Shown here: positions 7,781-43,587 of the stretch, in pieces
How the letters are laid out: the number at the start of each line of letters is the position of its first letter
Position numbering within the stretch: position 1 is the first letter of the stretch
Origin: Candidatus Berkelbacteria bacterium CG10_big_fil_rev_8_21_14_0_10_43_13
Lineage (GTDB): Bacteria; Patescibacteriota; UBA1384; XYA2-FULL-43-10; 1-14-0-10-43-13
Length of the DNA stretch: 48,443 nucleotides
Reading direction: 5' to 3'
Assembly: GCA_002773985.1 (NCBI GenBank)
Contig: PEZW01000006.1
Span: forward strand, 1-48,443
Position numbers and translations under genes: made by a program
The notes under the pieces: generated by a model
What the model was told of the DNA's origin: nothing
Seen by the model: only the letters and a program-made list of their open reading frames with translations
Database searches by the model: none

Positions 7781-8215
7781 TTGAAAGTAATATCGGGTGA
7801 TCAACCCGAGTACCCACACAACCCGTTTACGGGAAGCAATTCTGACCATAGATGGAGTAAACGTCCGATGCTAGAACTAACCCCAGATGAGGTAATCGCA
7901 CTGGGTGCGAAGATCGCGTCTGGCTCCGGTATTCCAAACGGACTTCCGACAGCGTGCTACAGCGGCTCGATGCCTGCCCAAATTCGATCAGTATTGGCAC
8001 TGATCATCTGCAGTCGTCAAGACGACGCAGTCAGAGAGCAGCAGGTCAGCACCGTTGGCTATCTCAAGCGAAACGACCAGCAGCGCTACCACGCAGCAGC
8101 ACGCTACATCTGTGACGTCGTCGAGCTGCTCGACATTACCAAGCTGCAGACCTGCCTCGAACTGTTCAATGATGTGCCGAACCTTGTTCCGCAAACGACG
8201 GACGCAGCCGAATGA
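7781..8215 (+). CDS. GC-rich orphan protein (island A, ORF 1)
   Basis: Open frame with G/C-rich third positions in a visibly GC-rich block. The TTG 7781 start is uncertain; ATG 7868 (MLELTPDEV) has GGAG 10 nt upstream. No recognisable motif. Confidence 0.5.
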   Translation: MKVISGDQPEYPHNPFTGSNSDHRWSKRPMLELTPDEVIALGAKIASGSGIPNGLPTACYSGSMPAQIRSVLALIICSRQDDAVREQQVSTVGYLKRNDQQRYHAAARYICDVVELLDITKLQTCLELFNDVPNLVPQTTDAAE

Positions 8216-8445
8216 TGGAGAACGTCATGGTCGCCGAACCGAACGTGCCCGAACGCAAGCCAAGCCCTGGTTGCTACTGCGGGGGTTCGTGTATTCCGCC
8301 CCCCGCCATCAAGATTGTCGTCGGTGTACCGGCCGAAGAACCGAAGCCGGAAAACGACGATCCGACCTCCGTGGCGCCGACCTCAAGCTGGCGCCCGACC
8401 GAACACATTCCGGGGAGCCAAAGATGGTTTCCTGCTGGGCGCTGA
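8212..8445 (+). CDS. GC-rich orphan Cys/Pro-rich 77-aa protein (island A, ORF 2)
   Basis: ATGA start/stop overlap with ORF 1. G/C-ending codons. Contains CYCGGSC and a Pro-rich tail. Confidence 0.45.
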   Translation: MMENVMVAEPNVPERKPSPGCYCGGSCIPPPAIKIVVGVPAEEPKPENDDPTSVAPTSSWRPTEHIPGSQRWFPAGR

Positions 8446-8474
8446 CACCGTTCTGCGCCTCTACCCCCCGACCG

Positions 8475-8509
8475 CCCCCGCATCTTCCCAACAGGGAAGG
8501 TGACGGGGG
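8475..8509 (+). terminator. GC-rich nested hairpin closing island A
   Basis: CCCCCG..CTTCCC-AACA-GGGAAG..CGGGGG followed by TCCCACCAAAAAATAA. No U-run, so the terminator function is uncertain. Confidence 0.35.
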
Positions 8510-8588
8510 TCCCACCAAAAAATAATAAACAAATATTTTCTTCTACTTATTACTTACCAGCTTACTAGCTTATTGGCTTACCAGCTTA

Positions 8589-9350
8589 TCACCGACCAAC
8601 ATGCTTCGGTGTGAAGCAACAATAGCCAATCTTGTCCGCATCGGCGCCAATTTTTTTCCATTTCCCTTTTGGAATTGCTCTCAACGCCGCCGGATAGAGA
8701 ATATTGTTTTCCTTGAAGATATGGTCGCGCAAACTGGCGATTAGCTCTCCCGACATTTTCAAAAACCTTTCTCGAAATTGTTCAAAATTCTTGATTTTCC
8801 GGTCACTCGCCAAATCGTGTAAATCTTTTTTTAATTTTCGCAATGTTCCATGTTCCATCGTCATTATCTCCGGCGGACCGTACACGCCGTATTTTTCCAC
8901 CTCCGGAAACAGCACTTCCTCTTCGCGCTGATGGTGTTTCTCGGCGGCGATTAAATGGTGCGTCAGATGTTGAAAACGTCCCCAAAAATCTGCCGGTAAG
9001 TCATTTTCTCTGTTGACTGTTCCGACCTCGGAGCTTAGCTTCTCCAAGCTCTCCAAGAATTTTAAAATCTCTTCGTGTTCAGCTACTAAAACACTCAGTG
9101 GATGATTTTCTGGAATCTGTGACTTCATTTTTTCCAGATCGTCAGACATTAATTCCAAATGTGCGGCACAAAGATGACTGAGCGATGACGGATCGATGCC
9201 CTCCTCGATGATAGCTTGCTCAGCCATAATCAGATCTTCGGTATCGACGCTTTTTAGAAAATTTTTTGCTTCCGCCTTTATCTTGTCCGGAGACTCTGTC
9301 TCACTTCGCCGCAAGATTTTCTTCAATTTTTTTACTTTACTTTTCTGCAT
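8589..9350 (-). CDS. DUF438 / hemerythrin HHE cation-binding domain protein
   Basis: Repeated H..E/HH patterns (HLTHHLIAAEKHHQREEEVLFPE, MEHGTLRK, RDHIFKENNILYP). GGAGG 3-nt upstream of the ATG. Confidence 0.8.
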   Translation of the reverse strand: MQKSKVKKLKKILRRSETESPDKIKAEAKNFLKSVDTEDLIMAEQAIIEEGIDPSSLSHLCAAHLELMSDDLEKMKSQIPENHPLSVLVAEHEEILKFLESLEKLSSEVGTVNRENDLPADFWGRFQHLTHHLIAAEKHHQREEEVLFPEVEKYGVYGPPEIMTMEHGTLRKLKKDLHDLASDRKIKNFEQFRERFLKMSGELIASLRDHIFKENNILYPAALRAIPKGKWKKIGADADKIGYCCFTPKHVGR

Positions 9351-9441
9351 ATTCCTCCATGTGACCGAGTGCCGGAGATACGGAGGGACCGAGAGATTGT
9401 TTTTTCAACCCTCTGCCACTCTGATACTCTGCCTCTAGTCA

Positions 9442-9846
9442 TTAATTAATTATCTCCGTCAACGTTGTGTTGGTCAAAAATTCGTCTATAAAGACCTCAA
9501 TCTTGCCGACAGTTTGGCGGAAAAGACAGGTCTCCTTCGGACAATACGGCGCCCGGCCGTCGGCACATTTGATGATGTTCGCCGGCTGGACAGCACGAAG
9601 CACCTCAAGCAAATTGATTTCACTTGGATCACGAGATAGGCGAAATCCGCCGTTTGGCCCAAGTCGCGATTCTACGATTCCGGCGCTTGCTAGACGCTGA
9701 AAAATCTTTGCCATCAGCGATTCAGAGATACTTCTCTCCCGTGCCAAGACCTTGGCATCGCGGAAATTTTCCCCGCTCTTGCTCAGCTCAATCAGCCCCA
9801 ACATCGCATACTCAGTTTCTTTTTTAATCAACACATTAACCTCCAA
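9442..9846 (-). CDS. Rrf2-family transcriptional regulator
   Basis: TEYAMLGLIEL ... SLMAKIFQRLASAGIVESRLGPNGGFRL wHTH signature with C-terminal Cys residues. The likelier start is GTG at 9834, after GGAGG. Confidence 0.85.
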   Translation of the reverse strand: MEVNVLIKKETEYAMLGLIELSKSGENFRDAKVLARERSISESLMAKIFQRLASAGIVESRLGPNGGFRLSRDPSEINLLEVLRAVQPANIIKCADGRAPYCPKETCLFRQTVGKIEVFIDEFLTNTTLTEIIN

Positions 9847-12088: not shown

Positions 12089-12125
12089 CGCAAAAATTTC
12101 TAATTACTCTAATTGTTCTAATCAT

Positions 12126-12220
12126 CTCCTCCCCTTAGCAAGGGGAGGTTGGGGTGGGGTATGGTTTCAATTAGTTTAACCCTATCATACCCCATCTAAC
12201 TTCCCCTGTCTCAGGGGAAG
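12126..12220. repeat. Inverted pair of family-2 hairpin repeats
   Basis: CTCCTCCCCTTAGCAAGGGGAGGTTGGGGTGGGGTAT (12126-12162) faces ATACCCCATCTAACTTCCCCTGTCTCAGGGGAAG (12187-12220). Confidence 0.85.
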
Positions 12221-12249: not shown

Positions 12250-13104
12250 TTACTTTACTGTTACACTATAAACTATACACCCGACTATCACCAGCGCACC
12301 AATCAGATCACGCTTGTAACCTCTGCGCTCGTGGAAATAGAAATATGATGGCAGATATGTCAGGACAGGTCCGAGAAGCAAGATGATTGTCGTCTCGGAG
12401 ACACCGATCGTCCGCAAGGCGTAATATTTCAACACCATCATAGTCGCCCCGAGCAGAGAAGCAATCACCAGCCAGCGCATCGCATCACGGTATTTGAGCA
12501 CATTAGTATTTGGTTTATAAATGAAGAGAAAAATGATCGCCACGACCAAAACTCGGGCGAAATAAAGAATCATCGGTGAGTAAACCACAAGTAATTTACG
12601 CAAAAGAATGGTTTCGATAGCGATGAAGAGCACTGCCCAGAGCGTCCGTTTGGCTGATTTTGTCAGTTGCAGATGATGACGCCGGATCTTCGTCGCGACT
12701 AGAGCAAGTGAAGCGACGATACCGGCGAAAAAGATGTGGATGTTGCGCTCCGCCGGCAGAAAAATTGCCGCTAAAACGATCGTGATCAAGGGTGCAGTCA
12801 GGATGATCAGTTCATACTCACACAGCGGCTCTGTCTGCAAACTTTCAGCCACCAATACATTCCAAATCGCTGCCGCCGATACCATCAAGACAAAGAGTAT
12901 GATGTATTGCGCTGAAAAAGCGCCCGGTTTTATACTGGCATCGAAGCGCAAAAAGAAAGCCGAGATAATCGTCAGCAAGACAAAAACATAAGGCAAATAA
13001 TATTTGAGCGGTAGCTTCAACTTGCCCAAAAGATATTTGAGGCTGGTATCGTTTCCCGCCGAAGCTATCGCTGCTAGAAATGCACTGAGCAAAATCCCCT
13101 CCAA
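12250..13104 (-). CDS. EamA/DMT-type 10-TM transporter
   Basis: 284 aa, almost entirely hydrophobic helices in two halves. TTG start 6 nt after the GGAGG supplied by the repeat at 13111. Confidence 0.75.
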   Translation of the reverse strand: MEGILLSAFLAAIASAGNDTSLKYLLGKLKLPLKYYLPYVFVLLTIISAFFLRFDASIKPGAFSAQYIILFVLMVSAAAIWNVLVAESLQTEPLCEYELIILTAPLITIVLAAIFLPAERNIHIFFAGIVASLALVATKIRRHHLQLTKSAKRTLWAVLFIAIETILLRKLLVVYSPMILYFARVLVVAIIFLFIYKPNTNVLKYRDAMRWLVIASLLGATMMVLKYYALRTIGVSETTIILLLGPVLTYLPSYFYFHERRGYKRDLIGALVIVGCIVYSVTVK

Positions 13105-13110
13105 ATGTTT

Positions 13111-13144
13111 CCTCCCCTTAGTAAGGGGAGGTTAGGTGGGGTAT
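13111..13144 (-). promoter_or_regulatory. Family-2 hairpin repeat supplying a self-paired Shine-Dalgarno for the EamA gene
   Basis: Minus strand reads ATACCCCACCTAACCTCCCCTTACTAAGGGGAGGAAACAT-TTG. The 9-bp stem CCTCCCCTT/AAGGGGAGG contains the SD. Confidence 0.6.
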
Positions 13145-13227
13145 GACCCCAACGTATTTATGACAAACCTTCAATTCTTATTCTAATACAAAAAAAGACC
13201 CTTTGCTATAAGGTCATGTTGTTTTAA

Positions 13228-13265
13228 GGTGGGTCCCCGTCGCCTTGCGGCGGCGAGGTCCCACC
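13228..13265. terminator. 17-bp GC-rich hairpin at the 3' boundary of island B
   Basis: GGTGGGTCCCCGTCGCC-TTGC-GGCGGCGAGGTCCCACC (two mismatches). On the minus strand it is followed by TTAAAACAAC. Confidence 0.4.
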
Positions 13266-13337
13266 ACGGTAGTCAGCGTGCGGTTGCTTAGCCACAACGC
13301 CTGGCTCTACGACCTCCATCCCGTTTCTCGGCCCATG

Positions 13338-13904
13338 CTACAGAGGAAGTATCCTGGTCATCAGAGCTTTCTCCCTCCTTCGGTGGAAAAGGCTCTTGAC
13401 CGGCAGGTCTCCAAGCCTTTCCAGTGACTGACCGAAGCTCGCGATCACCGCGCCATCTCGGTCGACCAGATCGACGAAGATACATGCTGTTTCTGTCTCT
13501 CCCAGACCTTCAGTCAGAATAACGGTCATGGGACCGCTTTCGACGGTAGCTTCCACCGACTCCCCCGGATGAAGCGTGGTCTCGCAGTTGCCACAGTCGT
13601 CACGGTTCAGAACACGAACGTCAATTCTCTTCTCACTTTCGTCCTGGCACCACGGGTGGTAGCTCGGATTGAAGAAAGCCACCCTCATCAGCTCATAGGT
13701 GACATCGCTACTACCGATGTTCTCGACCACCAAATCGACGACGTACTCTTTCACTCCTGTCTTGTCGTCGGCATGGTATAGACCACGGCTCAGCGCTATC
13801 GAGACCGTGATTGCATTCGACGGCGTGGCGATATCCCGTTCGGCATCAGACAGGATGTGGAGACAAATCAGCGCCAAACAGACAACTACCAGTACTCGCT
13901 TCAT
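13338..13904 (-). CDS. GC-rich orphan secreted protein (island B)
   Basis: MKRVLVVVCLALICLHILSDA signal-like N-terminus. GAGAGG ~6 nt before ATG 13904. The ORF-track start 13943 lies upstream of the predicted TSS. Several Cys residues (WCQDE, DDCGNCE). Confidence 0.55.
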   Translation of the reverse strand: MKRVLVVVCLALICLHILSDAERDIATPSNAITVSIALSRGLYHADDKTGVKEYVVDLVVENIGSSDVTYELMRVAFFNPSYHPWCQDESEKRIDVRVLNRDDCGNCETTLHPGESVEATVESGPMTVILTEGLGETETACIFVDLVDRDGAVIASFGQSLERLGDLPVKSLFHRRREKALMTRILPL

Positions 13905-13963: not shown

Positions 13964-14181
13964 TCCCAAACCAAAAAATCCGCTTTGAAAAAAACGAATA
14001 ATAAGAAAGACTATTTTGTGTTATTCTTCCAATCGCGGGAATAACGGCTCTGGCTCGAGTGATTCAGAGATCAGACTTTAATTTGAATATGTACCAAACA
14101 AAATCCCCTCCGAAATCAGTTACTTTGACTAGATTATAGAACAAAAAAGATATCAAGTCACCTATGTAATTTCAAAAACAC

Positions 14182-14586
14182 TCAGGCTTCAGCAATTATC
14201 TGAGCACTTTCCAGAAGAGTTTCTAGATCGTTATAAATCGTATCTTTCTTCTCCGGTGAAACAATCTTTTCGTCCTCCAGCAACTCACTGATCACCGATT
14301 TTATCGCCTCAGCATGGTCTTCCTGATACTCCGGTTTGGCAAGTATTTCCGCAAATCTGTCCTGATTTTCCTGCGTTGGTCCTTCAGTCAAACTTTGCAA
14401 AAATCCTTTGTCTGTTGCAGACAGCTTGCCAAAAATATTGAGAATAAAATTTTTCAGAATGAGTTCTCTCACCTTCACTTTCAACTCATCACTTTCTTCC
14501 TTTCTGAGTTGAAAATGATTGAAAATTTGATCGATTATTGAGTCTTGGTTCATACTATTTTGATTATTAAGATCCCGAATCTTCAC
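14182..14586 (-). CDS. Acidic helical hypothetical protein
   Basis: 134-aa ORF, 4 nt after the upstream gene, same strand as metG. No motif recognised. Confidence 0.55.
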   Translation of the reverse strand: MKIRDLNNQNSMNQDSIIDQIFNHFQLRKEESDELKVKVRELILKNFILNIFGKLSATDKGFLQSLTEGPTQENQDRFAEILAKPEYQEDHAEAIKSVISELLEDEKIVSPEKKDTIYNDLETLLESAQIIAEA

Positions 14587-14590
14587 TGAT

Positions 14591-15721
14591 TTATGTTTTA
14601 TCCTCTGGTTCGACCATAGATAAATCTCCGTCGGCTTGCCTACTGTTTCCGCCTACCGGGGAAATGGAAGCGGGATTAGGGACGTCCTCTCCTCTTGCCA
14701 GGGAAATGGATTTAGGATTAGGGTTATTTGTACCTAGAGAATTTAGATAATCTCTGATTCGATCAGGAAGATGATCCTTGCCTATTCCAAACATCCTTGT
14801 TGCTAAGCCTGCTGAAAAACCATTGACACCAATAGACTCGCGTATCTTTTCCAGTGAACCAAATCGAGAATCCCTAAAATTAAATTTTGATATTTTGAGT
14901 TTGACAATCGAGCTCAGATTCGGACAATTAATTGCCACTGGACCTTGAAGCTTGAAAAGGTTAACGCTTTGCAACTGCGGCGAGTCAAAAACACTTAAAT
15001 TTTGACCGCCCATAATCTCGTCCACTTCTATTAGATTAGAAGCTCTGAATTCATGTATTCCTTCTCCGATCACAAGGTGATCTATTTCGGTAATTTCCGG
15101 CGGAATCGTCTCGGACTCAGAAAAAGGTTTCTCTATTTTGAGCGGTCCGGAGTCATAGCTTTTCCACTCAAGTTTCGCTGTGCCGTCAGAATTTATCTTG
15201 ACATTATATAAACCTCGAGTACCGGGTGGGCAGCAGTCATCTAAAAACTGAGCAATCTTCTGCCCGACTTCCTCATTCTGCTCAACGCCAGACTGCTCCT
15301 CTTTCTGGCCAACACTAGGTTGTTCCTCGGTTATATCAGCATTTTGCGACTCCCTCGCTGACAAAGTTTGTCGCAGAGAATCTGCTTCTGATTTAATTGC
15401 ACGAAATTTCCTCCCAGCCATGGAGCTAGCAAGGAGGGAAACTGCGACCCCAGGATAAAACGCGGCAAGACCTGAGACAACACCGACAGCTGTTACTCCA
15501 ATAGCTTTCACTAGCGCTAGACTAGCTTTGTCATCGAGTTCAGCTAATTTCGCTTGTAATTGCTGATAGTCCGGGCTGTGTTCTGCTTCAACTGTTTCGT
15601 CGGCAGGTACAGAATCGACGCCAGCCTCATCCGGTGGATTTTCAGATTCTTCGACCTCGGTGCCTTCATCTAATTTGGTTTCGTCCTCTGGGTTGTACGA
15701 TAGTACTTCAGGCATTTTCAC
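14591..15721 (-). CDS. Hypothetical protein with acidic N-terminus, one TM region and an LRR-like C-terminal half
   Basis: 376-aa ORF whose ATG overlaps the metG stop by 14 nt. Hydrophobic stretch AIGVTAVGVVSGLAAFYPGVAVSLLA. Repeated NL..V/L patterns. Confidence 0.6.
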   Translation of the reverse strand: MKMPEVLSYNPEDETKLDEGTEVEESENPPDEAGVDSVPADETVEAEHSPDYQQLQAKLAELDDKASLALVKAIGVTAVGVVSGLAAFYPGVAVSLLASSMAGRKFRAIKSEADSLRQTLSARESQNADITEEQPSVGQKEEQSGVEQNEEVGQKIAQFLDDCCPPGTRGLYNVKINSDGTAKLEWKSYDSGPLKIEKPFSESETIPPEITEIDHLVIGEGIHEFRASNLIEVDEIMGGQNLSVFDSPQLQSVNLFKLQGPVAINCPNLSSIVKLKISKFNFRDSRFGSLEKIRESIGVNGFSAGLATRMFGIGKDHLPDRIRDYLNSLGTNNPNPKSISLARGEDVPNPASISPVGGNSRQADGDLSMVEPEDKT

Positions 15722-17274: not shown

Positions 17275-17303
17275 TTGACATTGTCTCATATATAGTTTAG
17301 AAT
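17275..17303 (+). promoter_or_regulatory. Promoter TTGACA-17-TAGAAT for island C
   Basis: TTGACA 17275-17280, 17-nt spacer, TAGAAT 17298-17303. Confidence 0.55.
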
Positions 17304-17328: not shown

Positions 17329-17508
17329 TTGATATGCTCGATCTGCAAGAAACCGGTGCCATCGTGTCAGAAGGACAACGGTAACGACGGCAAAACTTTT
17401 GTCGCCGTTACTCACTTTCACACGAGAACTGGCAAAGAATGCGAGGGAAGTGGCCGAGAGCTCGTCGAAGAATCAGCCGAACTTCCAGAACTAGCCATCA
17501 CCGGCTAA
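17329..17508 (+). CDS. 59-aa Cys-containing mini-protein (island C), possible zinc ribbon
   Basis: TTG start 8 nt after GAGGAG (17315-17320). MICSICKKPVPSCQKDNGNDGKTFVAVTHFHTRTGKECEGSGRELVEESAELPELAITG. One residue below the ORF-track cutoff. Confidence 0.45.
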   Translation: MICSICKKPVPSCQKDNGNDGKTFVAVTHFHTRTGKECEGSGRELVEESAELPELAITG

Positions 17509-17621
17509 GTCAAATCGCGGTGAAGTCAAGTAACCGCGACACAAAGGGGGAACACACACAGCAGCGCCCGCCGTTCCGCCGGCGCTGCACCCCACTTTAT
17601 TTTATTACAATGATTGTGATT

Positions 17622-17780: not shown

Positions 17781-18668
17781 TTAGGTCTTCGACTCTGAGG
17801 GATGAGCCCTCAGGCTCAGACTCGAATGAGACTTAGAAATTTTCTTCACGACTAGTACTATTTCACCCTTAACTTGATGCTCGCCAAGCGATTGAATAAC
17901 TCCGTCTACCCCACCGCCCCAATATTCCTCAAACATCTTTGTCATTTCACGACCGATAAAGACCTCCGTGTCAGCGCCAAAATAGGTCTTAATATCCTCC
18001 AGCGTTCGCTCTAAGCGGTTTGAACTTTCATAAATTACAATTGGACAATCGAGCAATGATAATTTTTTAAAACAGGTCTGACGGCCTTTTTTCTTTGGCA
18101 AAAATCCAGCGAAATAAAATTCTTTTTCGATCATGCCTGAAACTGAGGCAATCGCCGTTACGGCAGATGGACCAGGGATCGGAACTATTTGAATGCCACC
18201 AACGCTGTCATCCCGGACTGTGAGCTTGAGATCCGGGATCCAGGAAGTCGACACAGTCATTCCCGCGGAGGCGGGGATCCATTCCTTGATGTTTGGACTT
18301 GCCTGGATTCCCGCCTCCGCGGGAATGACAACTCTCTCGTTTGTCATTTCTCTGATTTTGCAAATCAGGACCTGCCCTGGATCGCTGATTGCGGGAGTTC
18401 CTGCATCCGTGACGAGTGCAATGTTTTTGCCTGATTTAAGCTCGTTAATTATAAAATCAATCTTCGATAGTTTGGAATGCTGAAAATAAGAAACGAGTGG
18501 TTTCTTGATCTCGTAATGTGCCAAGAGTTGACCGGTGTGACGTGTGTCCTCGCAAGCGACCAAGTCAACTGACTTCAGGATCTCCAGCGCTCGCAAGGTG
18601 ATGTCGTCGCGGTTGCCTATTGGTGTTGCAACTACATACAAAGTGCCTTGTTCGGAAATTTGTTTCAT
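17781..18668 (-). CDS. rsmI: 16S rRNA (cytidine1402-2'-O)-methyltransferase
   Basis: GTLYVVATPIGNRDDITLRALEILKSVDLVACEDTRHTG signature. Contains a ~40-50-aa repeat-derived insertion and a repeat-derived C-terminal tail. Confidence 0.9.
   Translation of the reverse strand: MKQISEQGTLYVVATPIGNRDDITLRALEILKSVDLVACEDTRHTGQLLAHYEIKKPLVSYFQHSKLSKIDFIINELKSGKNIALVTDAGTPAISDPGQVLICKIREMTNERVVIPAEAGIQASPNIKEWIPASAGMTVSTSWIPDLKLTVRDDSVGGIQIVPIPGPSAVTAIASVSGMIEKEFYFAGFLPKKKGRQTCFKKLSLLDCPIVIYESSNRLERTLEDIKTYFGADTEVFIGREMTKMFEEYWGGGVDGVIQSLGEHQVKGEIVLVVKKISKSHSSLSLRAHPSESKT
17789..17828. repeat. Hairpin repeat forming the last codons and stop region of rsmI
   Basis: TCGACTCTGAGGGATGAGCCCTCAGGCTCAGACTCGAATG. 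The same sequence occurs at 47384-47423. Confidence 0.8.
18207..18329. repeat. Three consecutive family-1 palindromes inside rsmI
   Basis: GTCATCCCGGAC..GATCCGGGATC, GTCATTCCCGCGGAGGCGGGGATCC and GGATTCCCGCCTCCGCGGGAATGAC. Translated as VVIPAEAGIQASPNIKEWIPASAGMTVSTSWIPDLKLTVRDD. Confidence 0.9.
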
Positions 18669-18710: not shown

Positions 18711-18744
18711 ATACCCCACCTGACCTCCCCTTGATAAGGGGAGG
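18711..18744. repeat. Family-2 hairpin repeat
   Basis: ATACCCCACCTGACCTCCCCTTGATAAGGGGAGG. Confidence 0.8.
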
Positions 18745-18827
18745 AAGCCATCGGCGTTGCTACCACAAATAATGTGCCAGGTTTATTCATATCTCAATTT
18801 TTACCACAAAATCAGCCAATTGTCCAC

Positions 18828-18856
18828 TTGTGGTCCATGCGTAATTAAGCTAGTAT
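18828..18856 (+). promoter_or_regulatory. Candidate promoter TTGTGG-17-TAGTAT for island D
   Basis: Hexamers at 18828-18833 and 18851-18856. The composition switch begins ~10 nt downstream. Confidence 0.4.
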
Positions 18857-18880
18857 TTTGCTGTTCGCGGAGACGTTATC

Positions 18881-19156
18881 ATGCCAGGCCGTGCGACTCG
18901 CCGGATCCTCCTGACGCATTTACACAGAAGAAAAGCTGTCAAGGTTCGATTCGATGTCGTCGTTCTCGACTCACCCAGTGGAAAGACAAGGACAACGATA
19001 ATACTTGGACCGAGCCAATATGCTGGTTCAGGAATTGTCAGGTTTGACAATGAAACTTTGGTGATCTTGCCATACGGCAAAAAAAATGAACTTGAGTTCA
19101 TTGTCGAGTCCGTCTGTCGTCCCTCACTTGTCCCAAACACCGACCCGCCGGCCTGA
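18881..19156 (+). CDS. GC-rich orphan 91-aa protein (island D)
   Basis: ATG 7 nt after GGAGA. Beta-strand-like alternation (VKVRFDVVVLDS, TTIILGP, IVRFDNETLVILPYG). The stop sits inside the hairpin GCCGGCCTG...CAGGCCGGC (19147-19181). Confidence 0.5.
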   Translation: MPGRATRRILLTHLHRRKAVKVRFDVVVLDSPSGKTRTTIILGPSQYAGSGIVRFDNETLVILPYGKKNELEFIVESVCRPSLVPNTDPPA

Positions 19157-19233
19157 CGTCCAGTAGTGACGACAGGCCGGCAAGGAAAACTACCCTACTA
19201 TTCGCTATTCGTCTAATTAGCTATTGATTTTGC

Positions 19234-20681: not shown

Positions 20682-21668
20682 CTAATTCGTTATTCTTAAT
20701 TCCTGATTCAGTGTTTGCGCAAACTTTGCCCAATCTTCAATAGACAATTCCTGTGCTCGGACGTTTTCCGATAATCCGACTGATTTAATTATAGCTGATG
20801 CTGTTGTTTTGTCGATATGGTAACCAGCTGATAAATTATTGGCTAGTGTCTTGCGTTTCGAAGCAAAACCGATATGAACGGTGCGGAAAAAGGCTTTTTC
20901 ACCAAGAGACTGAGTGGCAGAGAGACTGAGTGGCAGAGTTTTTTCTAGTTTTTCTCTCCGACTCTCCGACTCTCCGACTCTCCGAAACTTGTGCGTTTTG
21001 ATCCGTATAATCGCACTATCTACCGCCGGAGCCGGAAAAAATGACTCCTTCGGAACGACACTGATTATCTCCGGCTCACCGTAAGCTTGGACTGAAATCG
21101 CGAGGACGGACAGATGCCCTGGCTTAGCGCAAATTCTTTCAGCAACTTCCTTCTGAACAAGCAGGGTTATGCTCTCGGGTTTGTTCTCTAGAGTCAGAAA
21201 AAGCTGGAGAATTTTTGAAGTTATATAATACGGGATATTGGCAACAACTTTGTAAGCTGGACAATCTTTGGTCAACTCCGAAATGTTTAGTTTTAGTATA
21301 TCAGCATTGATAATTTCAAGATTGCTCGATTGCTCGACCCGCCTGCCGGACGGGCAGGTTGCTCGATTGTCTTTACTCCCCAACAATGGAACAATTGAAC
21401 AATGAAACAATTGCCCTAGAAGCTCCGCCAATTTGTCATCCATCTCCACGGCAATAATTTTTCCGGCTTTTTTGACTAGTTCGACTGTTAGTGTCCCCAC
21501 CCCTGGTCCGATCTCAATTACTAAATCGTCAGGCGCAATCTCCGCCGTTTCGACGATTTTCTCCAAAACTTCACGATCAACTAGAAAATTCTGCCCCAAA
21601 GAGTGCTTGGTGTAGAGGCCATTTAGTTTTAAATATTGAATTAGTTGTGTTTTGTCGCTTAAATCCAT
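20682..21668 (-). CDS. rsmA: 16S rRNA (adenine1518/1519-N6)-dimethyltransferase
   Basis: SLGQNFLVD, EIGPGVGTLT and ANIPYYITS motifs. Lengthened by two low-complexity insertions. Confidence 0.88.
   Translation of the reverse strand: MDLSDKTQLIQYLKLNGLYTKHSLGQNFLVDREVLEKIVETAEIAPDDLVIEIGPGVGTLTVELVKKAGKIIAVEMDDKLAELLGQLFHCSIVPLLGSKDNRATCPSGRRVEQSSNLEIINADILKLNISELTKDCPAYKVVANIPYYITSKILQLFLTLENKPESITLLVQKEVAERICAKPGHLSVLAISVQAYGEPEIISVVPKESFFPAPAVDSAIIRIKTHKFRRVGESESRREKLEKTLPLSLSATQSLGEKAFFRTVHIGFASKRKTLANNLSAGYHIDKTTASAIIKSVGLSENVRAQELSIEDWAKFAQTLNQELRITN
20906..20985. repeat. Tandem repeats inside rsmA (16-bp x2 and 8-bp x3-4)
   Basis: GAGACTGAGTGGCAGA x2 (20906-20938) and CTCCGACT units (20954-20985). 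Encodes RRVGESESRREKLEKTLPLSLSATQSL. Confidence 0.85.
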
Positions 21669-21676
21669 GTTCTATC

Positions 21677-21710
21677 CCTCCCCTTAGCAAGGGGAGGCTA
21701 GGTGGGGTAT
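21677..21710 (-). promoter_or_regulatory. Family-2 hairpin repeat supplying a self-paired SD for rsmA
   Basis: Minus strand: ATACCCCACCTAGCCTCCCCTTGCTAAGGGGAGGGATAGAAC-ATG. Confidence 0.6.
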
Positions 21711-29875: not shown

Positions 29876-30457
29876 TTATTTATGAAAAATCATCGTGTTT
29901 TTTAGCACATTGACTATCTCCTGTTCGACAAACTCTTTGGTGATCTGAGAAGGTTCGAAATCACCGTGTGATCCGATGACTCCGCCCTGATTTGGCATAA
30001 AGGTTGAAACCGTAATTCCTATCTTGCGCGCATACTGATTTGACACAAATGAGATATAAGGCGTCGATTCTGGCTTATAAAAAGACCTGTCGACAGTTGC
30101 CGGGTAGATATTGAAGGTGATACTGGCAGGTCGACAATGTGCCGTCGCGTCGACAGATTCCTCGTCTTGAGAAACGTGATAGTCATGACCATAGGCGTTT
30201 AGTTGGTTTCCAACATCGACAAGCACTGGCCAAATTACATCTTTCTCAAGCCTAGTAAATTCAACCACAAATGCATTTTGGGCAGTTTTTTCTGCCTCTT
30301 TCTTTGTCTTAAGTCCGTTTAAGTCCTGACTATAGCGTGTCATCAAACTGTCAAGCTCTGTCTTATTGTTTTCTTGCACATAGCTCCTTGTTAGATTTGA
30401 GGAAATTATACCACATTTAGCAATTAGCCTATTAGTAATTAGCAAATAACTGCTCAT
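29876..30457 (-). CDS. Hypothetical protein
   Basis: 193-aa ORF of native composition. No motif recognised. Confidence 0.5.
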   Translation of the reverse strand: MSSYLLITNRLIAKCGIISSNLTRSYVQENNKTELDSLMTRYSQDLNGLKTKKEAEKTAQNAFVVEFTRLEKDVIWPVLVDVGNQLNAYGHDYHVSQDEESVDATAHCRPASITFNIYPATVDRSFYKPESTPYISFVSNQYARKIGITVSTFMPNQGGVIGSHGDFEPSQITKEFVEQEIVNVLKNTMIFHK

Positions 30458-30469
30458 TCATCCTCTTTG

Positions 30470-30570
30470 TCATCCTCGGGTTCAGCGGTGTGACTTGAGA
30501 GTGAAGCCCGGGGATCTGGGACATTTAGTTACAATTGTGCTGCCTGGATTCCCGCCTACGCGGGAATGAC
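30470..30570. repeat. Family-1 palindromic repeat unit (intergenic)
   Basis: GTCATCCTCGGGTTCAGCGG...AGCCCGGGGATC plus GGATTCCCGCCTACGCGGGAATGAC. The first half is the reverse complement of 47480-47528. Confidence 0.85.
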
Positions 30571-30647
30571 AGTAGTTACATTAGCGAATCAGCAACTAGC
30601 AACGAACCACTAACCTACCAACTACTAACTACTAGCTAACTAATGGA

Positions 30648-32074: not shown

Positions 32075-33778
32075 CTACTCTATCTCAAAAACTTCGGCGG
32101 CAATCTTATTCATGTCCTCTTTTTTTTCAGCTTGTATCGGCTTCGATTTACCATCATGAATTTTGCAGACAACGCGACAATTTTTGCCGATGACATTTGT
32201 AATAATCTTCGAGAGTATTTGCGCATGCTTAGACTCAGAAATTCTCTCCTTGTGAAATTTAAATTTTACCCCGATCGTCAATGTGTCGTCGGTCAGGTTA
32301 TCCGGCTTAGCATCACGCAGTAGCGCTGCCAAAGTCGCATTTTCTTTCTTTGTCTCCGAAATTATCTCCTGCCAGATGTCCTTCGTCATCTCCATCACCG
32401 GGACGGGACAGAGAATCTCAGGAGTATCAACTTCTTGATCAGATTTTCTGGTAGCCGCCTCGTTTTCTCCTTCATTTTTGTCATCCCGGACTGCGGCTCG
32501 AGATCCGGGATCCAGAGCCTGTCCCGATCTTGCCGAAGGAAAGTTTGGTTGCGATTGTGCCGCCTGGATTCCCGCCTTCGCGGGAATGACAGCTGCAATA
32601 TTTTGGTCTTGTTTAAGGTCTTGGATTTCAGATTTCAAATTTTTCTCAGCACTGAGTACTGAATCCTGAGTACTGAATCCTGAGTACTGTGTACTTTTGA
32701 CCACCGACAATTCCAGCGGCAATACCGGAATTGAAACCTCTTTGAAGAGCTTGCCATTTTCGATAAAAATCTGAAGCAAAAATAGAGCACGATCTTCGTC
32801 AGCCTGCCCAGCCAATTCAGTCAATCTTTTGATCTCTTCCTTGGTTCCGTCCAGTTGGATCGTCTTGGCAACTTTCAGGAGTACAACTTGGCGCAGTGTC
32901 GTGATGACAGCTCGGTTAAATTCGGCCAAATCATAACCTTGATTGTGAAGCTCTTGGGCGATTTTTAATCCCTCCTCCGGGATGTTATTAAAAATCGCCC
33001 CGATGAACTTCTCCACTTCGGCGTTTTCGGCCAAACCCAATATCTGTCTCGTTTCTGAAATCGTAATTTTTCCATTTGCACCGGCTGCGACCTGCTCGAG
33101 TAAACCCAGGGCATCTCGATGAGCACCCGATGCAGAGACAGCAATCAGGTCGAGTGAATCATCGTCTATCTCAATCTTTTCTGTCTTGGCGACTCTTTTC
33201 AGATTTTCCACCAGCTCTTCTCTGCCAGCTCGCTTGAAATCAAACCTCTGCGCTCGCGACAGGATGGTCGCCGGAATTTTGTGAATTTCCGTCGTCGCTA
33301 ATATAAAAACAACGTGCTCAGGCGGCTCCTCAAGCGTTTTCAACAAGGCGTTGAATGCGCTCTTCGAGAGCATATGAACTTCATCGATGATATATACTTT
33401 CTTTTTCAATTTCGTCGGCATCAGACGGGCTTTTTCGATCAAGTCACGAATGTCGTCGACACCGGTATGTGAAGCGGCATCGATTTCGATGACGTCAATC
33501 GCCCGACCGTCGTTGATGTCAACACAAGCTGTGCATTTATTGCATGGCTCCCCTGTCGTCGACTTGTTGTCTTTCTTGGCCGCTAAAATCTCCTCACAAT
33601 TTATCGCCTTAGCCAACAATCTTGCCGTTGATGTTTTGCCGATCCCACGCGGACCAGTCAGGAGATAAGCGTGAACAAGTTTATCACTTTTGACGCTCTC
33701 CAAAAGCGTCTGGACGACATGCCCTTGCCCAATCATTTCAGAAAAATTTTTTGATCTGTATTTTTGATAAAAAGCCAT
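32075..33778 (-). CDS. dnaX: DNA polymerase III subunit gamma/tau
   Basis: GPRGIGKTS, zinc module CNKCTAC, DEVHMLS, SRAQRF. ATG 33778 (MAFYQKYR) is the likelier start; the ORF-track start is 33829. Confidence 0.92.
   Translation of the reverse strand: MAFYQKYRSKNFSEMIGQGHVVQTLLESVKSDKLVHAYLLTGPRGIGKTSTARLLAKAINCEEILAAKKDNKSTTGEPCNKCTACVDINDGRAIDVIEIDAASHTGVDDIRDLIEKARLMPTKLKKKVYIIDEVHMLSKSAFNALLKTLEEPPEHVVFILATTEIHKIPATILSRAQRFDFKRAGREELVENLKRVAKTEKIEIDDDSLDLIAVSASGAHRDALGLLEQVAAGANGKITISETRQILGLAENAEVEKFIGAIFNNIPEEGLKIAQELHNQGYDLAEFNRAVITTLRQVVLLKVAKTIQLDGTKEEIKRLTELAGQADEDRALFLLQIFIENGKLFKEVSIPVLPLELSVVKSTQYSGFSTQDSVLSAEKNLKSEIQDLKQDQNIAAVIPAKAGIQAAQSQPNFPSARSGQALDPGSRAAVRDDKNEGENEAATRKSDQEVDTPEILCPVPVMEMTKDIWQEIISETKKENATLAALLRDAKPDNLTDDTLTIGVKFKFHKERISESKHAQILSKIITNVIGKNCRVVCKIHDGKSKPIQAEKKEDMNKIAAEVFEIE
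32480..32590. repeat. Family-1 palindromes inside dnaX
   Basis: GTCATCCCGGACTGCGGCTCGAGATCCGGGATCC ... GGATTCCCGCCTTCGCGGGAATGAC. Translated as VIPAKAGIQAAQSQPNFPSARSGQALDPGSRAAVRDDK. Confidence 0.9.
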
Positions 33779-39145: not shown

Positions 39146-39212
39146 TGGTACCGCGTATGGGAGTCGAACCCATGATCTTCGCCGTGAGAGGGCGATGTCC
39201 TAGACCACTAGC
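39146..39212 (-). pseudogene. tRNA-Glu(CUC)-like sequence lacking a 5' acceptor strand
   Basis: D-arm, anticodon arm (TCGCC-CTCTCAC-GGCGA), T-arm (ATGGG-TTCGACT-CCCAT), ACGCGGT-A-CCA are all present. The expected 5' ACCGCGT/GCCGCGT is replaced by the hairpin repeat GGGAGATCCCCCTTCGGGGGAAC (39221-39243). Confidence 0.55.
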
Positions 39213-39263
39213 CTCCCGGAGGGAGATCCCCCTTCGGGGGAACGAACACATAACTTTAAAGTA

Positions 39264-40839: not shown

Positions 40840-42309
40840 TTATTGTAACTTTTCGATTGCCAGATTCAGTCGTTTTAGTGTCTCGTCCTTGCCCAGCGCT
40901 AGGGCCAGCTCGACTGGGGAGGGTGATTTTTCCTCACCCGATAGAGCGACGCGCACCGGCCAGAAAACATCACCATTAGTCAAATTATTATTCTCAACAA
41001 TCACCGACAGCGATTGTTGAATTGTTTCATTGTTCCATTGCTCAATTGTTGGCAACTTCGATTGAACCAATCTCAATGCTTGAAGGGTTGTAGCCTGATC
41101 GGATTTTTTGAAAACCAAGATCCCTGCGACATACTCGGGAGTTTGGCGTAATTTCAAGATGTACTCAGCCGCTTCCTTTAGCGTCTTGTATCCACCGCGC
41201 CCGATCAAATTTAGTTCTGCTTTTTGAATATTTGGTAATTTAAAATTTTGGAATTGATTTAGGATTTCGGATTTAGGATTTAGGATTTCTTCGGTAATGT
41301 AGTGTGCATTGATCGAATTGAGCTTTTCAATATTAAATATCGCCGGCGCTTTATTGAGATTTTTCAATTTAAATTCGCCAACTAAATCATCAAGAGAGAA
41401 AAATTCTCGCTCGTCCTTCGGATTCCAGCCCAGCAGGGCGATAAAATTTATGATCGCCTCCGGCAGATAACCAAGCGATTTGAACTCCTCGACCGAGGTC
41501 GCACCATGACGTTTTGACAATTTACTTTTATCAGGCGCCAAGATCATCGAGAAATGGCCAAACTTCGGCTGATCCCAGCCAAGCGCTTCATAGAGAATGA
41601 TATGTTTTGGCGTTGATGACAACCACTCCTCCGAGCGCAAAACGTAATTGATCCCCATCTCGTGATCGTCAACGACAGATGCCAAGTGATAGGTCGGATA
41701 ACCGTCTGATTTTAGTAGCACTTGGTCGTCGAAAAGTGACAGATCAAATTTGACGTCGCCACGGACCAAATCATCGACAACTACCTCGCCCGTCGCCGGC
41801 ATTTTCAGTCGAATTACGTAGTCGCCATCACTAGCAAGTTGGGGACGTTTCTCCCCAGAGAGAAGCGTCCCCGGACGATTTACAACATCTTCAATTTTAA
41901 TATTCTTCTCTCGACAAGTGCCATCATAGCCCGGCAATTTGCCAGACAACTTTAATTCCTCACCTTTAACTTTCAACTCATCTTTCGTACAAGTACAGAT
42001 ATAGGCCTTGCCCTCATCAACCAATTTCAAAGCGTATTTTCGATATAAATCCAGTCTCTTGGACTGAGTCACGATATCGTCAATATTATCAGGAACCAAG
42101 CCCAGCCACTCTAGCGCCTCGACCAATCGCTTGTCAGAACCTTCGACGTAGCGCGCTCGATCGGTGTCCTCGATCCGCAAATAAAACTTGCCGCCGGTAC
42201 TCCGAGCCGCCAGATATTCAAACAGCGCCGTCCGCGCTCCACCGATGTGAAGCTCTCCGGTCGGACTCGGCGCAAAACGAGTAATAATATTGTTGTAATT
42301 CATGATCAT
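40840..42309 (-). CDS. gltX: Glutamyl-tRNA synthetase
   Basis: FAPSPTGELHIGGARTAL (HIGH) and KLSKRHG (KMSKS) motifs. Confidence 0.95.
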   Translation of the reverse strand: MIMNYNNIITRFAPSPTGELHIGGARTALFEYLAARSTGGKFYLRIEDTDRARYVEGSDKRLVEALEWLGLVPDNIDDIVTQSKRLDLYRKYALKLVDEGKAYICTCTKDELKVKGEELKLSGKLPGYDGTCREKNIKIEDVVNRPGTLLSGEKRPQLASDGDYVIRLKMPATGEVVVDDLVRGDVKFDLSLFDDQVLLKSDGYPTYHLASVVDDHEMGINYVLRSEEWLSSTPKHIILYEALGWDQPKFGHFSMILAPDKSKLSKRHGATSVEEFKSLGYLPEAIINFIALLGWNPKDEREFFSLDDLVGEFKLKNLNKAPAIFNIEKLNSINAHYITEEILNPKSEILNQFQNFKLPNIQKAELNLIGRGGYKTLKEAAEYILKLRQTPEYVAGILVFKKSDQATTLQALRLVQSKLPTIEQWNNETIQQSLSVIVENNNLTNGDVFWPVRVALSGEEKSPSPVELALALGKDETLKRLNLAIEKLQ

Positions 42310-42447
42310 AATCTAGCACAATTACTTCTGTCTGTCATCCTGAGCGTCAGCGAAGGATCTCATGTAATCTCGTATTAGGTATTTCGTATTACGTATTAGG
42401 CAGATAACCGCATTATACGTTATACGCTATACGTTATACGATTTTTT

Positions 42448-42807
42448 TCAGCCTTCTACCGCTGATTCAATGTGCTCTATCTTCGGCTCATTCCCCGACC
42501 AATCAACCCCGACGACATCGATCCGGATCGCCCGGCTGGGATATTTCTGACTGATTGCTCGCGCCAGCAATTTTAATTTATTTTGTTTGGCATATCTGAC
42601 CAGATCGACAGCTTGACCAAATCCCCCACCGCGAACAGTCTTGACCTCGACGATGACGATGGTCTTTCTTTGCTCGGCCAAAATATCAATTTCACCAAAA
42701 GGAAAATTGATATTGCGATCGAGAATTTTGTAGCCTTTTGACTCGAGGTATCTCGCCACCGCTTCCTCACCGGCATTACCGGTTTTTTTGTTTTTAGTTT
42801 TGTCCAT
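42448..42807 (-). CDS. yraN: YraN-family (UPF0102) endonuclease-like protein
   Basis: GEEAVARYLESKGYKILDRN...GEIDILA...VEVK pattern. 119 aa. Confidence 0.85.
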   Translation of the reverse strand: MDKTKNKKTGNAGEEAVARYLESKGYKILDRNINFPFGEIDILAEQRKTIVIVEVKTVRGGGFGQAVDLVRYAKQNKLKLLARAISQKYPSRAIRIDVVGVDWSGNEPKIEHIESAVEG

Positions 42808-43002
42808 AGATTTAGGACTTAGGGTTTAGGATTTAGATTTTAGGACATTAGTCTTTATCCCTTATCTTTAGTCATTTTAATAATACTTTATACCTTATAC
42901 GTAATACGTAATGTTCTTATTCTACCACTTGTTCACAACTTGCAAAGAGAAAAAGGTGTATACTATTTCCTAACATCCCCACGGGAGAGGAGATCCACCG
43001 TC

Positions 43003-43512
43003 ATGGCCCAACACGCGTATGTGCCGAGTCGCGCCGTTGACCCTGATCCGGACCGAGCCTTCCCTGTGACATGGGAGGGCTTGGAGCCAACTTTGCACCA
43101 GATGCTCGTCAGATTTGGCGAGCTACAACCAGAGTGTGATCCGGAGGTACTGGCCTGCATGGATCACCATATCGGGCCAATCGTCGCCGCACTACCAGTC
43201 AGACAACTACAACCGCTGGTCCGAGGCGCCGGTTTCGCTCAAGGGCTGAAACTCTACTGGCAAGCCTGTCCCGGACAAGGCTGGAATGTCTTCGACATCC
43301 TTCATCGCTCAGAGGCCAATGTCGCTGATCACACCTGGACTGGTCAGACAAGACCAGGTCAGCGTGTCGGGCTTTGGCGCCCAAGTATCGGCTCGGTTGA
43401 TGGCTTGTTCGAGGAGATCCCGATCGTTGTCGGCGAGACAGGTTGGGACCCTGAGGAAGTCCCCGTCCTCCACTACTTCCCGCCGATCGTCACTGTCCGT
43501 CCCCCCGTCTGA
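43003..43512 (+). CDS. GC-rich orphan protein (island G)
   Basis: ATG 43003 follows GGAGAGGAG. 169 aa. G/C-ending codons. No motif recognised. The ORF-track start 42940 lies in AT-rich DNA without an SD. Confidence 0.5.
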   Translation: MAQHAYVPSRAVDPDPDRAFPVTWEGLEPTLHQMLVRFGELQPECDPEVLACMDHHIGPIVAALPVRQLQPLVRGAGFAQGLKLYWQACPGQGWNVFDILHRSEANVADHTWTGQTRPGQRVGLWRPSIGSVDGLFEEIPIVVGETGWDPEEVPVLHYFPPIVTVRPPV

Positions 43513-43539
43513 GGAGTTCCCGCTCCTCAAGCCTGCTCC

Positions 43540-43570
43540 CCGGCATCACTCCTTCATGGAGTGGTGCCGG
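43540..43570 (+). terminator. GC-rich hairpin closing island G
   Basis: CCGGCATCACTCC-TTCATG-GAGTGGTGCCGG followed by GCCCCACCAAACAAATTT. A second small hairpin GAGGAG-TTCCCG-CTCCTC lies just upstream. Confidence 0.4.
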
Positions 43571-43587
43571 GCCCCACCAAACAAATT

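Follow-up and report, generated by a model that had tools for sequence, protein, structure and literature searches.

Probable resident accessory genes, GC-rich and in part fast-diverging, in fixed intergenic slots of a Berkelbacteria-like genome

We analyzed a 48,443-nt stretch of DNA (the window; contig PEZW01000006.1 of assembly GCA_002773985.1, forward strand, 44.8% G+C) in which seven short blocks, described at first pass as GC-rich and numbered here from left to right, lie in the gaps between housekeeping genes. A first-pass annotation had interpreted the blocks as moron-like cassettes acquired repeatedly and recently from a high-GC donor, conceivably a host. Pfam labels on identical public contigs identify the surrounding genes as a P-type ATPase, an FAD oxidoreductase, a hemerythrin/DUF438 protein, Rrf2, an AbiE module, TatD, EamA, MetG, RsmI, Nramp, KsgA, a G5 protein, PcrA, DnaB, DnaX, GltX, and YraN, together with a toxin-antitoxin island, bearing out the statement that the blocks adjoin core genes. 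Protein similarity places the window lineage among the Patescibacteria, also termed the candidate phyla radiation (CPR), near “Candidatus Berkelbacteria”: its MetG is 75% identical to that of a metagenome-assembled genome (L011) and 60% identical to that of “Candidatus Berkelbacteria” RIFOXYA2_FULL_43_10 (L012), and its GltX is 66% identical to that of “Candidatus Berkelbacteria” LacPavin_0818_WC55 (L022).

The relatives recovered for comparison were a sister species, designated species B, three further lineages (L040, L011, and L020), and the more distant L012. Species B comprises the contigs L019, L033 (identical to L037), and L042 (identical to L043), all three from the same two samples (JGI 3300014208 and ENA ERZ27249449). 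Synteny was kept throughout the compared lineages. The gene order is metG, slot 3, rsmI, slot 4, Nramp, ksgA, G5, and a radical SAM gene in L019, and the same in L020, where the radical SAM gene adjoins pcrA; it is dnaX, dnaB, a 169-amino-acid (aa) gene, a block 6 homologue, and a 235-aa gene in L033, and EamA, TatD, and, farther along, hemerythrin, two small open reading frames (ORFs), and the FAD oxidoreductase in L042. At 5864-12751 of L033, a giant 2295-aa protein and an ABC transporter, both absent from the window, lie between the 235-aa gene and pcrA. In each of the five related lineages recovered, GC-rich ORFs are found in the same intergenic gaps. Genome scans with the PilB-like ATPase and FAD oxidoreductase as queries returned nothing useful. 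Contigs L035, L036, L038, and L039 belong to the same strain as the window, and public contigs match it at 99.9 to 100% identity across every block and all junctions in at least 8 independent assemblies or samples (among them JGI 3300008255, 3300004210, 3300004208, and 3300025142; ENA ERZ27293400, ERZ27293386, and ERZ17912254; and runs SRR6240789 and SRR6053076). This agreement rules out chimeric assembly, a concern raised at first pass about the block junctions.

Each block appears to be an autonomous unit made up of a promoter or leader, a single ORF (a coupled pair in block 1), and a hairpin rich in G+C, with the following features.

7603-7760, plus strand: slot 1 leader, ~100 to 130 nt, with a promoter-like TTGACA-17-TAAAAT (7603-7631) and a terminator-like hairpin (7732-7747) followed by a T run
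7868-8215, plus strand: block 1 ORF A, 115 aa, GGAG 10 nt upstream, no known family
8212-8445, plus strand: block 1 ORF B, 77 aa, proline-rich, start overlapping the ORF A stop (ATGA)
8474-8510, plus strand: block 1 terminal GC hairpin, fold z = -4.7, followed by CCCACC and an A run
13197-13215: canonical terminator beyond the block 2 hairpin
13228-13265, minus strand: block 2 terminal GC hairpin, GGTGGG...CCCACC, z = -2.5
13338-13904, minus strand: block 2 ORF, 188 aa, N-terminal signal-peptide-like segment, weak DUF4352 (Ig-like) similarity
17275-17303, plus strand: slot 3 promoter-like site, TTGACA-17-TAGAAT, 11 of 12 consensus matches
17329-17508, plus strand: block 3 ORF, 59 aa, CxxC...H...C zinc-ribbon-like, only marginally GC-rich
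17561-17588, plus strand: block 3 terminal GC hairpin, z = -3.7
18828-18880, plus strand: slot 4 promoter-like site (pattern match) and ribosome-binding site
18881-19156, plus strand: block 4 ORF, 91 aa, G+C 0.50, GC enrichment not significant
19147-19181, plus strand: block 4 terminal GC hairpin, overlapping the stop codon, z = -4.4
23588-24964, plus strand: block 5 ORF, a 458-aa radical SAM enzyme with CPYDCEFC and distant relatives of the B12-binding type
24994-25023, plus strand: block 5 terminal hairpin, z = -2.1, with a short T run
28368-28408, minus strand: block 6 terminal hairpin, containing the stop codon, z = -2.7
28397-28951, minus strand: block 6 ORF, 184 aa, from a sparse family of 166- to 234-aa proteins
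28952-29085, minus strand: block 6 promoter region and structured 5' leader
43003-43512, plus strand: block 7 ORF, 169 aa, no homologue found
43539-43571, plus strand: block 7 terminal GC hairpin, z = -7.2, followed by CCCCACC and an A-rich tail

As the first-pass annotation had noted, the blocks end in GC-rich hairpins: all seven 3' ends fold at z = -2.1 to -7.2 relative to shuffles. The hairpins vary from block to block and are covered by no common repeat family; three have a GGG.CCCACC and an A-rich ending in common. No known structured RNA in Rfam matched within any block, either at the gathering score or at E <= 0.5, and none matched in the related loci. Promoters of the TTGNNN-17-TANNNN type, claimed for five blocks, were found upstream of each of blocks 3, 4, and 5 and, at a distance of 160 nt, of block 1; at blocks 2, 6, and 7 none was found in that form. 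The pattern TTGNNN-17-TANNNT occurs in the window only slightly more often than expected (37 occurrences versus 26.5 ± 4.7), and support for the putative promoters comes from cross-species conservation, not from the loose pattern. Apart from the radical SAM enzyme, the encoded proteins had no match among the Pfam, PHROG, PADLOC, or NCBIfam families, again in agreement with the earlier description, and all-against-all BLASTP among block proteins showed no paralogy, with the sole exception of a 300-aa ORF of L020 that belongs to the block 6 family.

Log-odds segmentation of G+C in the window, with 200 shuffles as the null (top shuffle score, 14.1), delimited five of the seven blocks with near-single-base precision.

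23523-25038: block 5, score 52.8
7897-8516: block 1, score 34.2
42977-43578: block 7, score 33.8
13228-13875: block 2, score 22.2
28372-28790: block 6, score 18.2

The claim that all seven blocks are GC-richer than their surroundings thus holds at this level for five of them (scores 18 to 53) and fails for two: the block 3 segment (17441-17593) scored 9.0, which is chance level, and block 4 (18866-19181; G+C ~0.49 to 0.50) fell outside the top 14 segments. Comparable GC-rich stretches that were not listed at first pass occur within housekeeping genes at 2524-3114 (P-type ATPase) and 426-668, and a further unlisted segment (47258-47523) consists of stacked hairpin repeats.

The block ORFs favor G/C-ending codons, as described earlier, with gene-level G+C at third codon positions (GC3) of 0.60 to 0.66 versus ~0.38 to 0.55 in neighboring genes. 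All three codon positions are GC-shifted, and amino acid make-up is shifted as well (Lys 3.4% versus 8.3% and Pro 6.5% versus 3.8%); Cys and Trp frequencies are near those of random GC-rich sequence. Codon usage nevertheless retains host-specific preferences. In the Gly, Arg, Pro, and Ser families, codon choice equals that of core genes (AGA 0.22, TCA 0.39, GGT 0.30), which argues against a typical high-GC donor, and the GC3 excess is confined to codons with weak first two bases (blocks versus core: TTC 0.71 versus 0.30, ATC 0.69 versus 0.46, AAC 0.59 versus 0.34, AAG 0.58 versus 0.37).

Comparison of the window with species B by blastn separated blocks 1 to 6 into two groups.

Housekeeping genes: 59 to 100% alignable, 73 to 90% identity
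Blocks 2 and 5: 98 to 100% alignable, 84% and 78% identity
ORFs of blocks 1, 3, 4, and 6: 0 to 3% alignable
Non-coding DNA beside blocks 1, 3, 4, and 6: 49 to 94% alignable, 71 to 87% identity

In slots 1, 3, 4, and 6, divergence is confined to the ORF. The promoters, leaders, ribosome-binding sites, and terminators of these blocks are 71 to 95% identical to those of the sister species, the flanking genes are kept, and an ORF of similar size and orientation occupies the same gap; identity collapses just after the start codon or leader and recovers at the terminator (alignments A1, A2, A3, and A6). Within the ORFs, identity is 0.40 to 0.54 at all codon positions versus 0.57 to 0.68 at the third positions of neighboring genes. 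Diverged orthologues occur across L042, L019, L033, L040, and L011, and the slot occupants retain residual homology, detected by tblastn for block 6 and as z ~3.6 for block 1, with weaker evidence, in the form of shared motifs only, for blocks 3 and 4. ORFs of matching length with kept start and stop codons stay open in up to four lineages despite near-saturated divergence. Because the window strain is invariant across samples, ongoing hypermutation is argued against. Our alignments of the related loci show that whole units sometimes disappear or give way to other GC-rich genes in the same slots, that slots and predicted expression signals are common to sister species, and that GC-richness goes with this gene class in every lineage examined.

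Blocks 2 and 5 diverge differently. The block 2 orthologue in species B (L019 and L042) is 80 to 81% identical at the protein level, with G+C of 0.53 to 0.58 and GC3 of 0.65 to 0.70, and its DNA is 98% alignable at 84% identity. Block 5 is assigned to the radical SAM superfamily by its CX3CX2C motif and a PF04055 match above the gathering score (34.4 bits versus a cut-off of 29.5); its NCBIfam scores were all far below the cut-offs, and no subfamily was reached. The radical SAM gene occupies the same slot in L019 (78% aa identity) and L020 (49%) and another context in L021 (53%), and its G+C (0.56 to 0.58) and GC3 (0.67 to 0.72) are similar in the four genomes, with neighbors at 0.42 to 0.49. 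Its DNA is 100% alignable with species B at 78% identity, and at four-fold sites the window gene has diverged from that of L019 as far as metG has (K4, 0.65 versus 0.68), which points to co-inheritance. Taken at the level of sequence, these comparisons show the block 2 and radical SAM genes to be inherited and to diverge at their neighbors' pace, and since the same genes with GC-rich composition lie at the same loci in the sister species, recent import is refuted for both. The radical SAM family has nine members, all at least 47% identical, and the next matches are YgiQ-type enzymes at 25 to 30% identity; the one source-named member is annotated as Patescibacteria, and the three with examined contigs lie in CPR-like gene contexts. 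Replacement is also seen at such loci. In slot 5 of L011, two other GC-rich ORFs replace the radical SAM gene; slot 2 of L040 holds a 152-aa ORF, possibly a remote homologue, and a 324-aa metallophosphoesterase-like ORF (GC3 0.74 to 0.77 in both); and in place of the window's AT-rich AbiE module, species B carries a 342-aa radical-SAM-like gene that is GC-rich (GC3 0.80).

The slot 1 leader is ~95% identical to that of species B, with flanking coding DNA at ~80%, and identity collapses at ~7760. This 7603-7760 element is a candidate small RNA or attenuator preceding the block 1 ORFs; a DNA probe for it in genomes returned nothing useful. The 115-aa gene call of ORF A is the same on independent contigs. 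Species B has a 96-aa ORF at the place and in the orientation of ORF A and a 72-aa ORF (G+C 0.61) at the place of ORF B, the DNA of ORF B itself being 0% alignable by blastn. Residual nucleotide identity of block 1 to species B is 0.53 versus 0.43 ± 0.03 in shuffles (z ~3.6), the block contains overlapping ORFs in several frames, and its terminal hairpin is kept in species B.

In slot 3, the first promoter hexamer has an invariant TTGA core in the window, L019, and L011 (TTGACA, TTGAAA, and TTGACA), the second hexamer diverges, and an AATATTA.CAGAA stretch upstream is conserved. The block 3 ORF DNA is 0% alignable with species B, and the small ORFs in slot 3 of L019 and L011 carry CPECG and CPVCG; a small CxxC...H...C protein is present in all three lineages, and the terminal hairpin is kept in L019. 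The GGAGA..ATCATGCC of slot 4 is likewise kept in the window, L019, and L011. Slot 4 ORFs elsewhere are of 92 aa (L019), 95 aa (L040), and ~76 aa (L011), with a start MP.. and a C-terminal ..PPA/T in common. Block 4 nucleotide identity is at the shuffle baseline, with no codon-phase signal, and its hairpin is kept in L019, where it shows a compensatory change from G-C to A-T. Despite identity at the shuffle baseline, blocks 3 and 4 both exceed their surroundings in G+C in each lineage. Slot 3 is empty in L040 (63 bp), and slot 4 is empty in L020.

Block 6 has an orthologue in the same slot of L033, 31% identical over 175 aa (G+C 0.57; tblastn E ~4e-24), in a region where DnaB, the 169-aa protein, and the 235-aa protein are 97%, 90%, and 81% identical between L033 and the window. 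Its promoter, leader, ribosome-binding site, and ATG are nearly identical in the two, as is ~700 nt of upstream non-coding DNA; identity drops to ~50% just past the ATG and recovers at the stop-codon hairpin, which is kept in L033. Identity by codon position (0.51/0.62/0.48) carries a coding signature, and four-fold sites look saturated (p4 0.68, n = 28, versus 0.26 to 0.53 in neighbors). The family motif is LGGE..L..W....G..L.DG..N..F/YVR...G..R....W. An exhaustive HMMER search of 1.84 billion representative proteins gave only 11 matches, including short matches in giant multi-repeat proteins (P0029, P0030, and P0032), and the family matched no PDB sequence. The AlphaFold2 model of block 6 (predicted local distance difference test [pLDDT], 73.6) has no significant PDB fold match; a HigB2/RelE fold was considered and rejected, the best match (E 0.4; template-modeling score 0.2 to 0.3) being not significant. 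Slot 6 is empty in L020: the block 6 leader is absent, but a conserved upstream element is retained, and slot 5 of L020 carries the 300-aa block 6-family gene, without the window's leader or terminator. A metagenome probe for the block 6 leader retrieved only the species B contig.

The upstream element is a ~450-nt non-coding stretch (29110-29560, minus strand) that ends in a terminator and has no Rfam match. It is 88 to 95% conserved among the window, L033, and L020, above coding DNA, with apparent compensatory changes, and L020 keeps it without block 6. We regard it as a candidate new non-coding RNA.

For block 7, whose slot runs from yraN to AbiEii, no phage match was found, no relative was recovered for the slot in any lineage, and the single-sequence AlphaFold2 model is of low confidence (pLDDT 44.6).

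Pfam labels on the contigs and a repeat search confirmed the earlier statement that no integrase, transposase, or flanking direct repeats accompany the blocks. No donor-like homologue was found among 5.8 billion clustered or 1.84 billion representative proteins, and an indexed protein search gave no homologue of blocks 6 and 7. Among the marks of a compositional island, atypical composition was found for five of the seven blocks, and neither absence from the locus in relatives (blocks 1 to 6) nor a distant donor nor a mobility footprint was found. A phage origin was rejected (no PHROG match, no viral contig with the radical SAM gene, no phage tblastn match for blocks 6 and 7), as was membership in a defense system (no PADLOC match for the blocks). 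No gene of the contigs carries a reverse transcriptase domain and no block has a repeat copy in the window, so a template of the diversity-generating retroelement or silent-cassette type was rejected. Integron gene cassettes were rejected as well: the hairpins are unlike each other, there is no integrase, and the units are scattered with their own promoters. The sole insertion footprint at these loci is a gene pair of normal G+C (14182-15721; 376 aa and 134 aa) that is absent in species B and was inserted into the end of metG, splitting off a relic. The relic metG 3' end lies downstream of the pair at 14020-14075 (minus strand), where translation gives SLEPEPLFPRLEE before the stop codon, as in L019.

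Several other elements were noted in the window. A family of ~40-nt hairpins of the form ATACCCCACCTA.CCTCCCCTT-loop-AAGGGGAGG occurs at 12119-12162, 13102-13145, 18711-18746 (inverted), 21668-21711, 22731-22774, 22845-22888, 25023-25066, and 44992-45021. Most copies immediately precede the start codon of a minus-strand housekeeping gene (TatD, EamA, RsmI, KsgA, and G5), and because the 3' arm resembles a ribosome-binding site, the hairpin could sequester that site. A second hairpin repeat family (CTGGATTCCCGCC..GCGGGAATGACAG) includes 1450-1486, 18283-18331, 30524-30572, 32544-32592, and 47330-47500, and the 47258-47523 stack has 48- to 70-nt repeats in common with 17784-17831 and 30447-30516. 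Tandem arrays of 8- to 9-nt oligomers are of three kinds: AACTTTATG (27503-27571, 45067-45194, and 47130-47260), TTAGGAC/T (23436-23467, 27230-27265, 41253-41288, and 42806-42841), and ATTGTTCC (21380-21414, 26078-26127, and 41013-41054). Some of the arrays are intergenic and promoter-proximal, including those in the divergent regions upstream of blocks 5 and 7, and others lie inside ksgA, pcrA, and gltX. A 140-nt inverted repeat, 94% complementary, joins two small-ORF regions 17 kb apart (5808-5947 and 22951-23090). The right end of the window (43588-48443) is an AT-rich island (0.32 to 0.40 G+C) of the toxin-antitoxin and defense type, with AbiEii, two HEPN/nucleotidyltransferase pairs, a PIN protein, and internal repeats of ~100 to 130 nt at 1-kb spacing, and forms a third compositional class in the window. 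Beside tRNA-Glu and tRNA-Gln, a partial Rfam tRNA match (39157-39214, minus strand; 34 bits, model positions 9 to 63) has no ARAGORN call.

On balance, we think it probable, though well short of certain, that the blocks are resident, lineage-own accessory genes of Berkelbacteria-like CPR bacteria, held in fixed intergenic slots and persistently GC-rich. Some slot genes would be ordinary and slowly evolving, and others would be fast-evolving or carry old alleles. Such alleles, whether old or rapidly turning over, may be shuffled by homologous recombination through the conserved flanks, and the fast-evolving proteins are probably engaged in interactions with other cells or phages. The divergence would then be caused by diversifying selection together with recombination rather than by a raised mutation rate, and the GC excess would be kept up by a force specific to the gene class and would not be the signature of a donor. 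GC-biased gene conversion at recombination-prone loci and selection against A/T-rich codons are candidate forces.

Several points weigh against this interpretation. That the species B contigs form one genome is inferred from their shared samples. The synonymous excess of block 6 comes from 28 sites in a gene that is hard to align, and the counts of polarized substitutions are too few for showing equilibrium. Four-fold divergence between lineages (p4 0.4 to 0.67) is below full saturation, so composition alone is compatible with an ancient, incompletely ameliorated import. GC-biased conversion of +10 to 15 points exceeds the size usually reported for bacteria. The highly expressed GroEL, L27, and L19 genes of L022 show no preference for C-ending codons (a weak test in a different, more distant Berkelbacteria species), which leaves translational selection as a cause of the C-ending codons without support, and we rejected it on that test. 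Finally, recent import may still apply to block 7, which has no relative at all.

An ancient import is the strongest alternative to residence, although we consider it unlikely. The ancestor of the sub-clade would have taken up the genes from high-GC donors, with vertical descent and partial amelioration since and with fast divergence reflecting weak constraint. The GC shift at all codon positions and in amino acids fits such a history, as do the four-fold divergence below saturation and the lack of GC-rich blocks around gltX in the more distant L022. In the window lineage, GC-to-AT changes outnumber AT-to-GC changes 8 to 1 in the radical SAM gene, as amelioration would predict, but metG (14 to 4; few sites) and other housekeeping genes show the same excess, which is therefore not block-specific. 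The Gly, Arg, Pro, and Ser codon preferences equal those of the host, including AGA at 0.22; blocks 3 and 4 have turned over at nearly every site and are GC-richer than their surroundings in each lineage all the same; and the protein searches revealed no donor-like homologue. Because the same slots of L011 and L040 hold different GC-rich genes, import would also need many independent events into the same gaps.

A dedicated diversification system is another reading, favored by the sharp boundaries of divergence. In its broad form, which we hold to be a slim possibility, a conserved leader and hairpin would define “expression slots” whose ORF is replaced or hypermutated by an unrecognized GC-enriching mechanism, generating protein diversity in ultra-small symbiotic bacteria; taken simply as exchange or hypermutation of the ORF between leader and hairpin with enrichment in G+C, the idea seems to us slightly slimmer still. 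Divergence begins at the start codon or leader and ends at the terminator in four slots, exceeds that at neighbors' third positions, and is accompanied by a block 6-family gene in a different slot of L020 and by the ending common to three terminal hairpins. The window, however, contains no recombinase, reverse transcriptase, template repeat, or shared att-like motif, and the strain is 99.9 to 100% identical in at least 8 samples, blocks included. Moreover, the L020 copy has neither the same leader nor the same terminator, and blocks 2 and 5 are not hyperdivergent relative to species B.

The model of the first-pass annotation, in which a high-GC donor such as a host recently and repeatedly supplied moron-like single-gene cassettes, now appears very unlikely. 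Part of it stood: the blocks are autonomous units with composition unlike their flanks, and whole units are gained, lost, or replaced between lineages over deeper divergence; block 7, moreover, was found only in the window species. Recent import from a high-GC donor or host did not stand, in that, for six of the seven blocks (1 to 6), sister species carry the same genes with the same GC-rich composition at the same loci, with block 7 unplaced in relatives. Nearest homologues are from the same CPR lineage or absent, the radical SAM K4 equals that of metG (0.65 versus 0.68), the codon dialect is the host's, and no donor, phage, or mobility signal was found.

Least likely of all is that the small blocks are non-coding, being GC-rich structured RNAs or spacers with ORFs as by-products of low stop-codon density, for although block 1 has ORFs in several frames, Cys and Trp are near random expectation, block 4 lacks a codon-phase signal, and the block 7 structure model is of low confidence, up to four lineages keep open an ORF with corresponding length, start, and stop; block 6 belongs to a protein family, shows codon phasing, and yields a confident fold model; CxxC...H...C is kept in block 3; and nothing matched Rfam at E <= 0.5.

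If the blocks are resident genes, as we favor, a fast-diverging gene class stays 10 to 15 points GC-richer than its genome through near-complete turnover and inside conserved regulatory frames, against the usual trend for orphan genes. Should GC-biased gene conversion or transcript selection be responsible, these loci would offer a tractable natural test case; should dedicated diversification prove true, they would represent a new mechanism. The predicted block proteins, which include one that may be secreted, one zinc-ribbon-like protein, and one whose sparse family has matches in giant surface proteins, are candidate host- or phage-interaction factors, a kind of protein missing from CPR biology. 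Atypical G+C is no sign of host-to-symbiont transfer here, so calling transfer from composition can be misleading in CPR genomes.

Among known systems, the blocks resemble phage morons in being single-gene promoter-gene-terminator units with composition unlike their flanks and with presence or absence in collinear genomes, but they lie in a cellular chromosome among housekeeping genes, lack PHROG or phage matches, and are mostly conserved in position across species. Diversity-generating retroelements are common in CPR bacteria, and their targets likewise show localized hypervariability in small proteins; here, in contrast, there is neither a reverse transcriptase nor a pair of template and variable repeats, the whole ORF is variable, and the same strain does not vary among samples. 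Hypervariable allelic loci with conserved flanks under diversifying or balancing selection include the specificity regions of agr and comQXP and the variable regions of flagellins and pilins. The blocks share with them above-background divergence bounded by conserved sequence, including diverged synonymous sites, as expected of old alleles, and differ in that the entire ORF is variable, several unrelated single-gene loci are involved, and G+C is enriched. In the model of Lawrence and Ochman, compositional islands arise by horizontal transfer and subsequently ameliorate. Atypical G+C at all codon positions is the shared feature, whereas the blocks have no donor or mobility genes, are present in relatives, use host-like codons, and have kept their composition through extensive sequence turnover. 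A study of transfer in groundwater Patescibacteria (PMC12455944) found mostly intra-phylum exchange and reported nothing resembling the slot pattern. The evolutionary pattern is also like that of the orphan genes, diverged past recognition, surveyed by Vakirlis and Kupczok in 2024 (PMC11293555), which are likewise short and lineage-restricted, with conserved synteny and residual similarity to an orthologue. In that survey, the G+C of bacterial orphans tracks the genome (0.45 versus 0.46; rho 0.96), candidates of phage or de novo origin have lower G+C, and fast-diverging genes are expected to gain A+T, whereas the blocks described here are 10 to 15 points GC-richer than their genome. Fast-evolving orphan loci with a persistent GC excess are apparently an undescribed variant.

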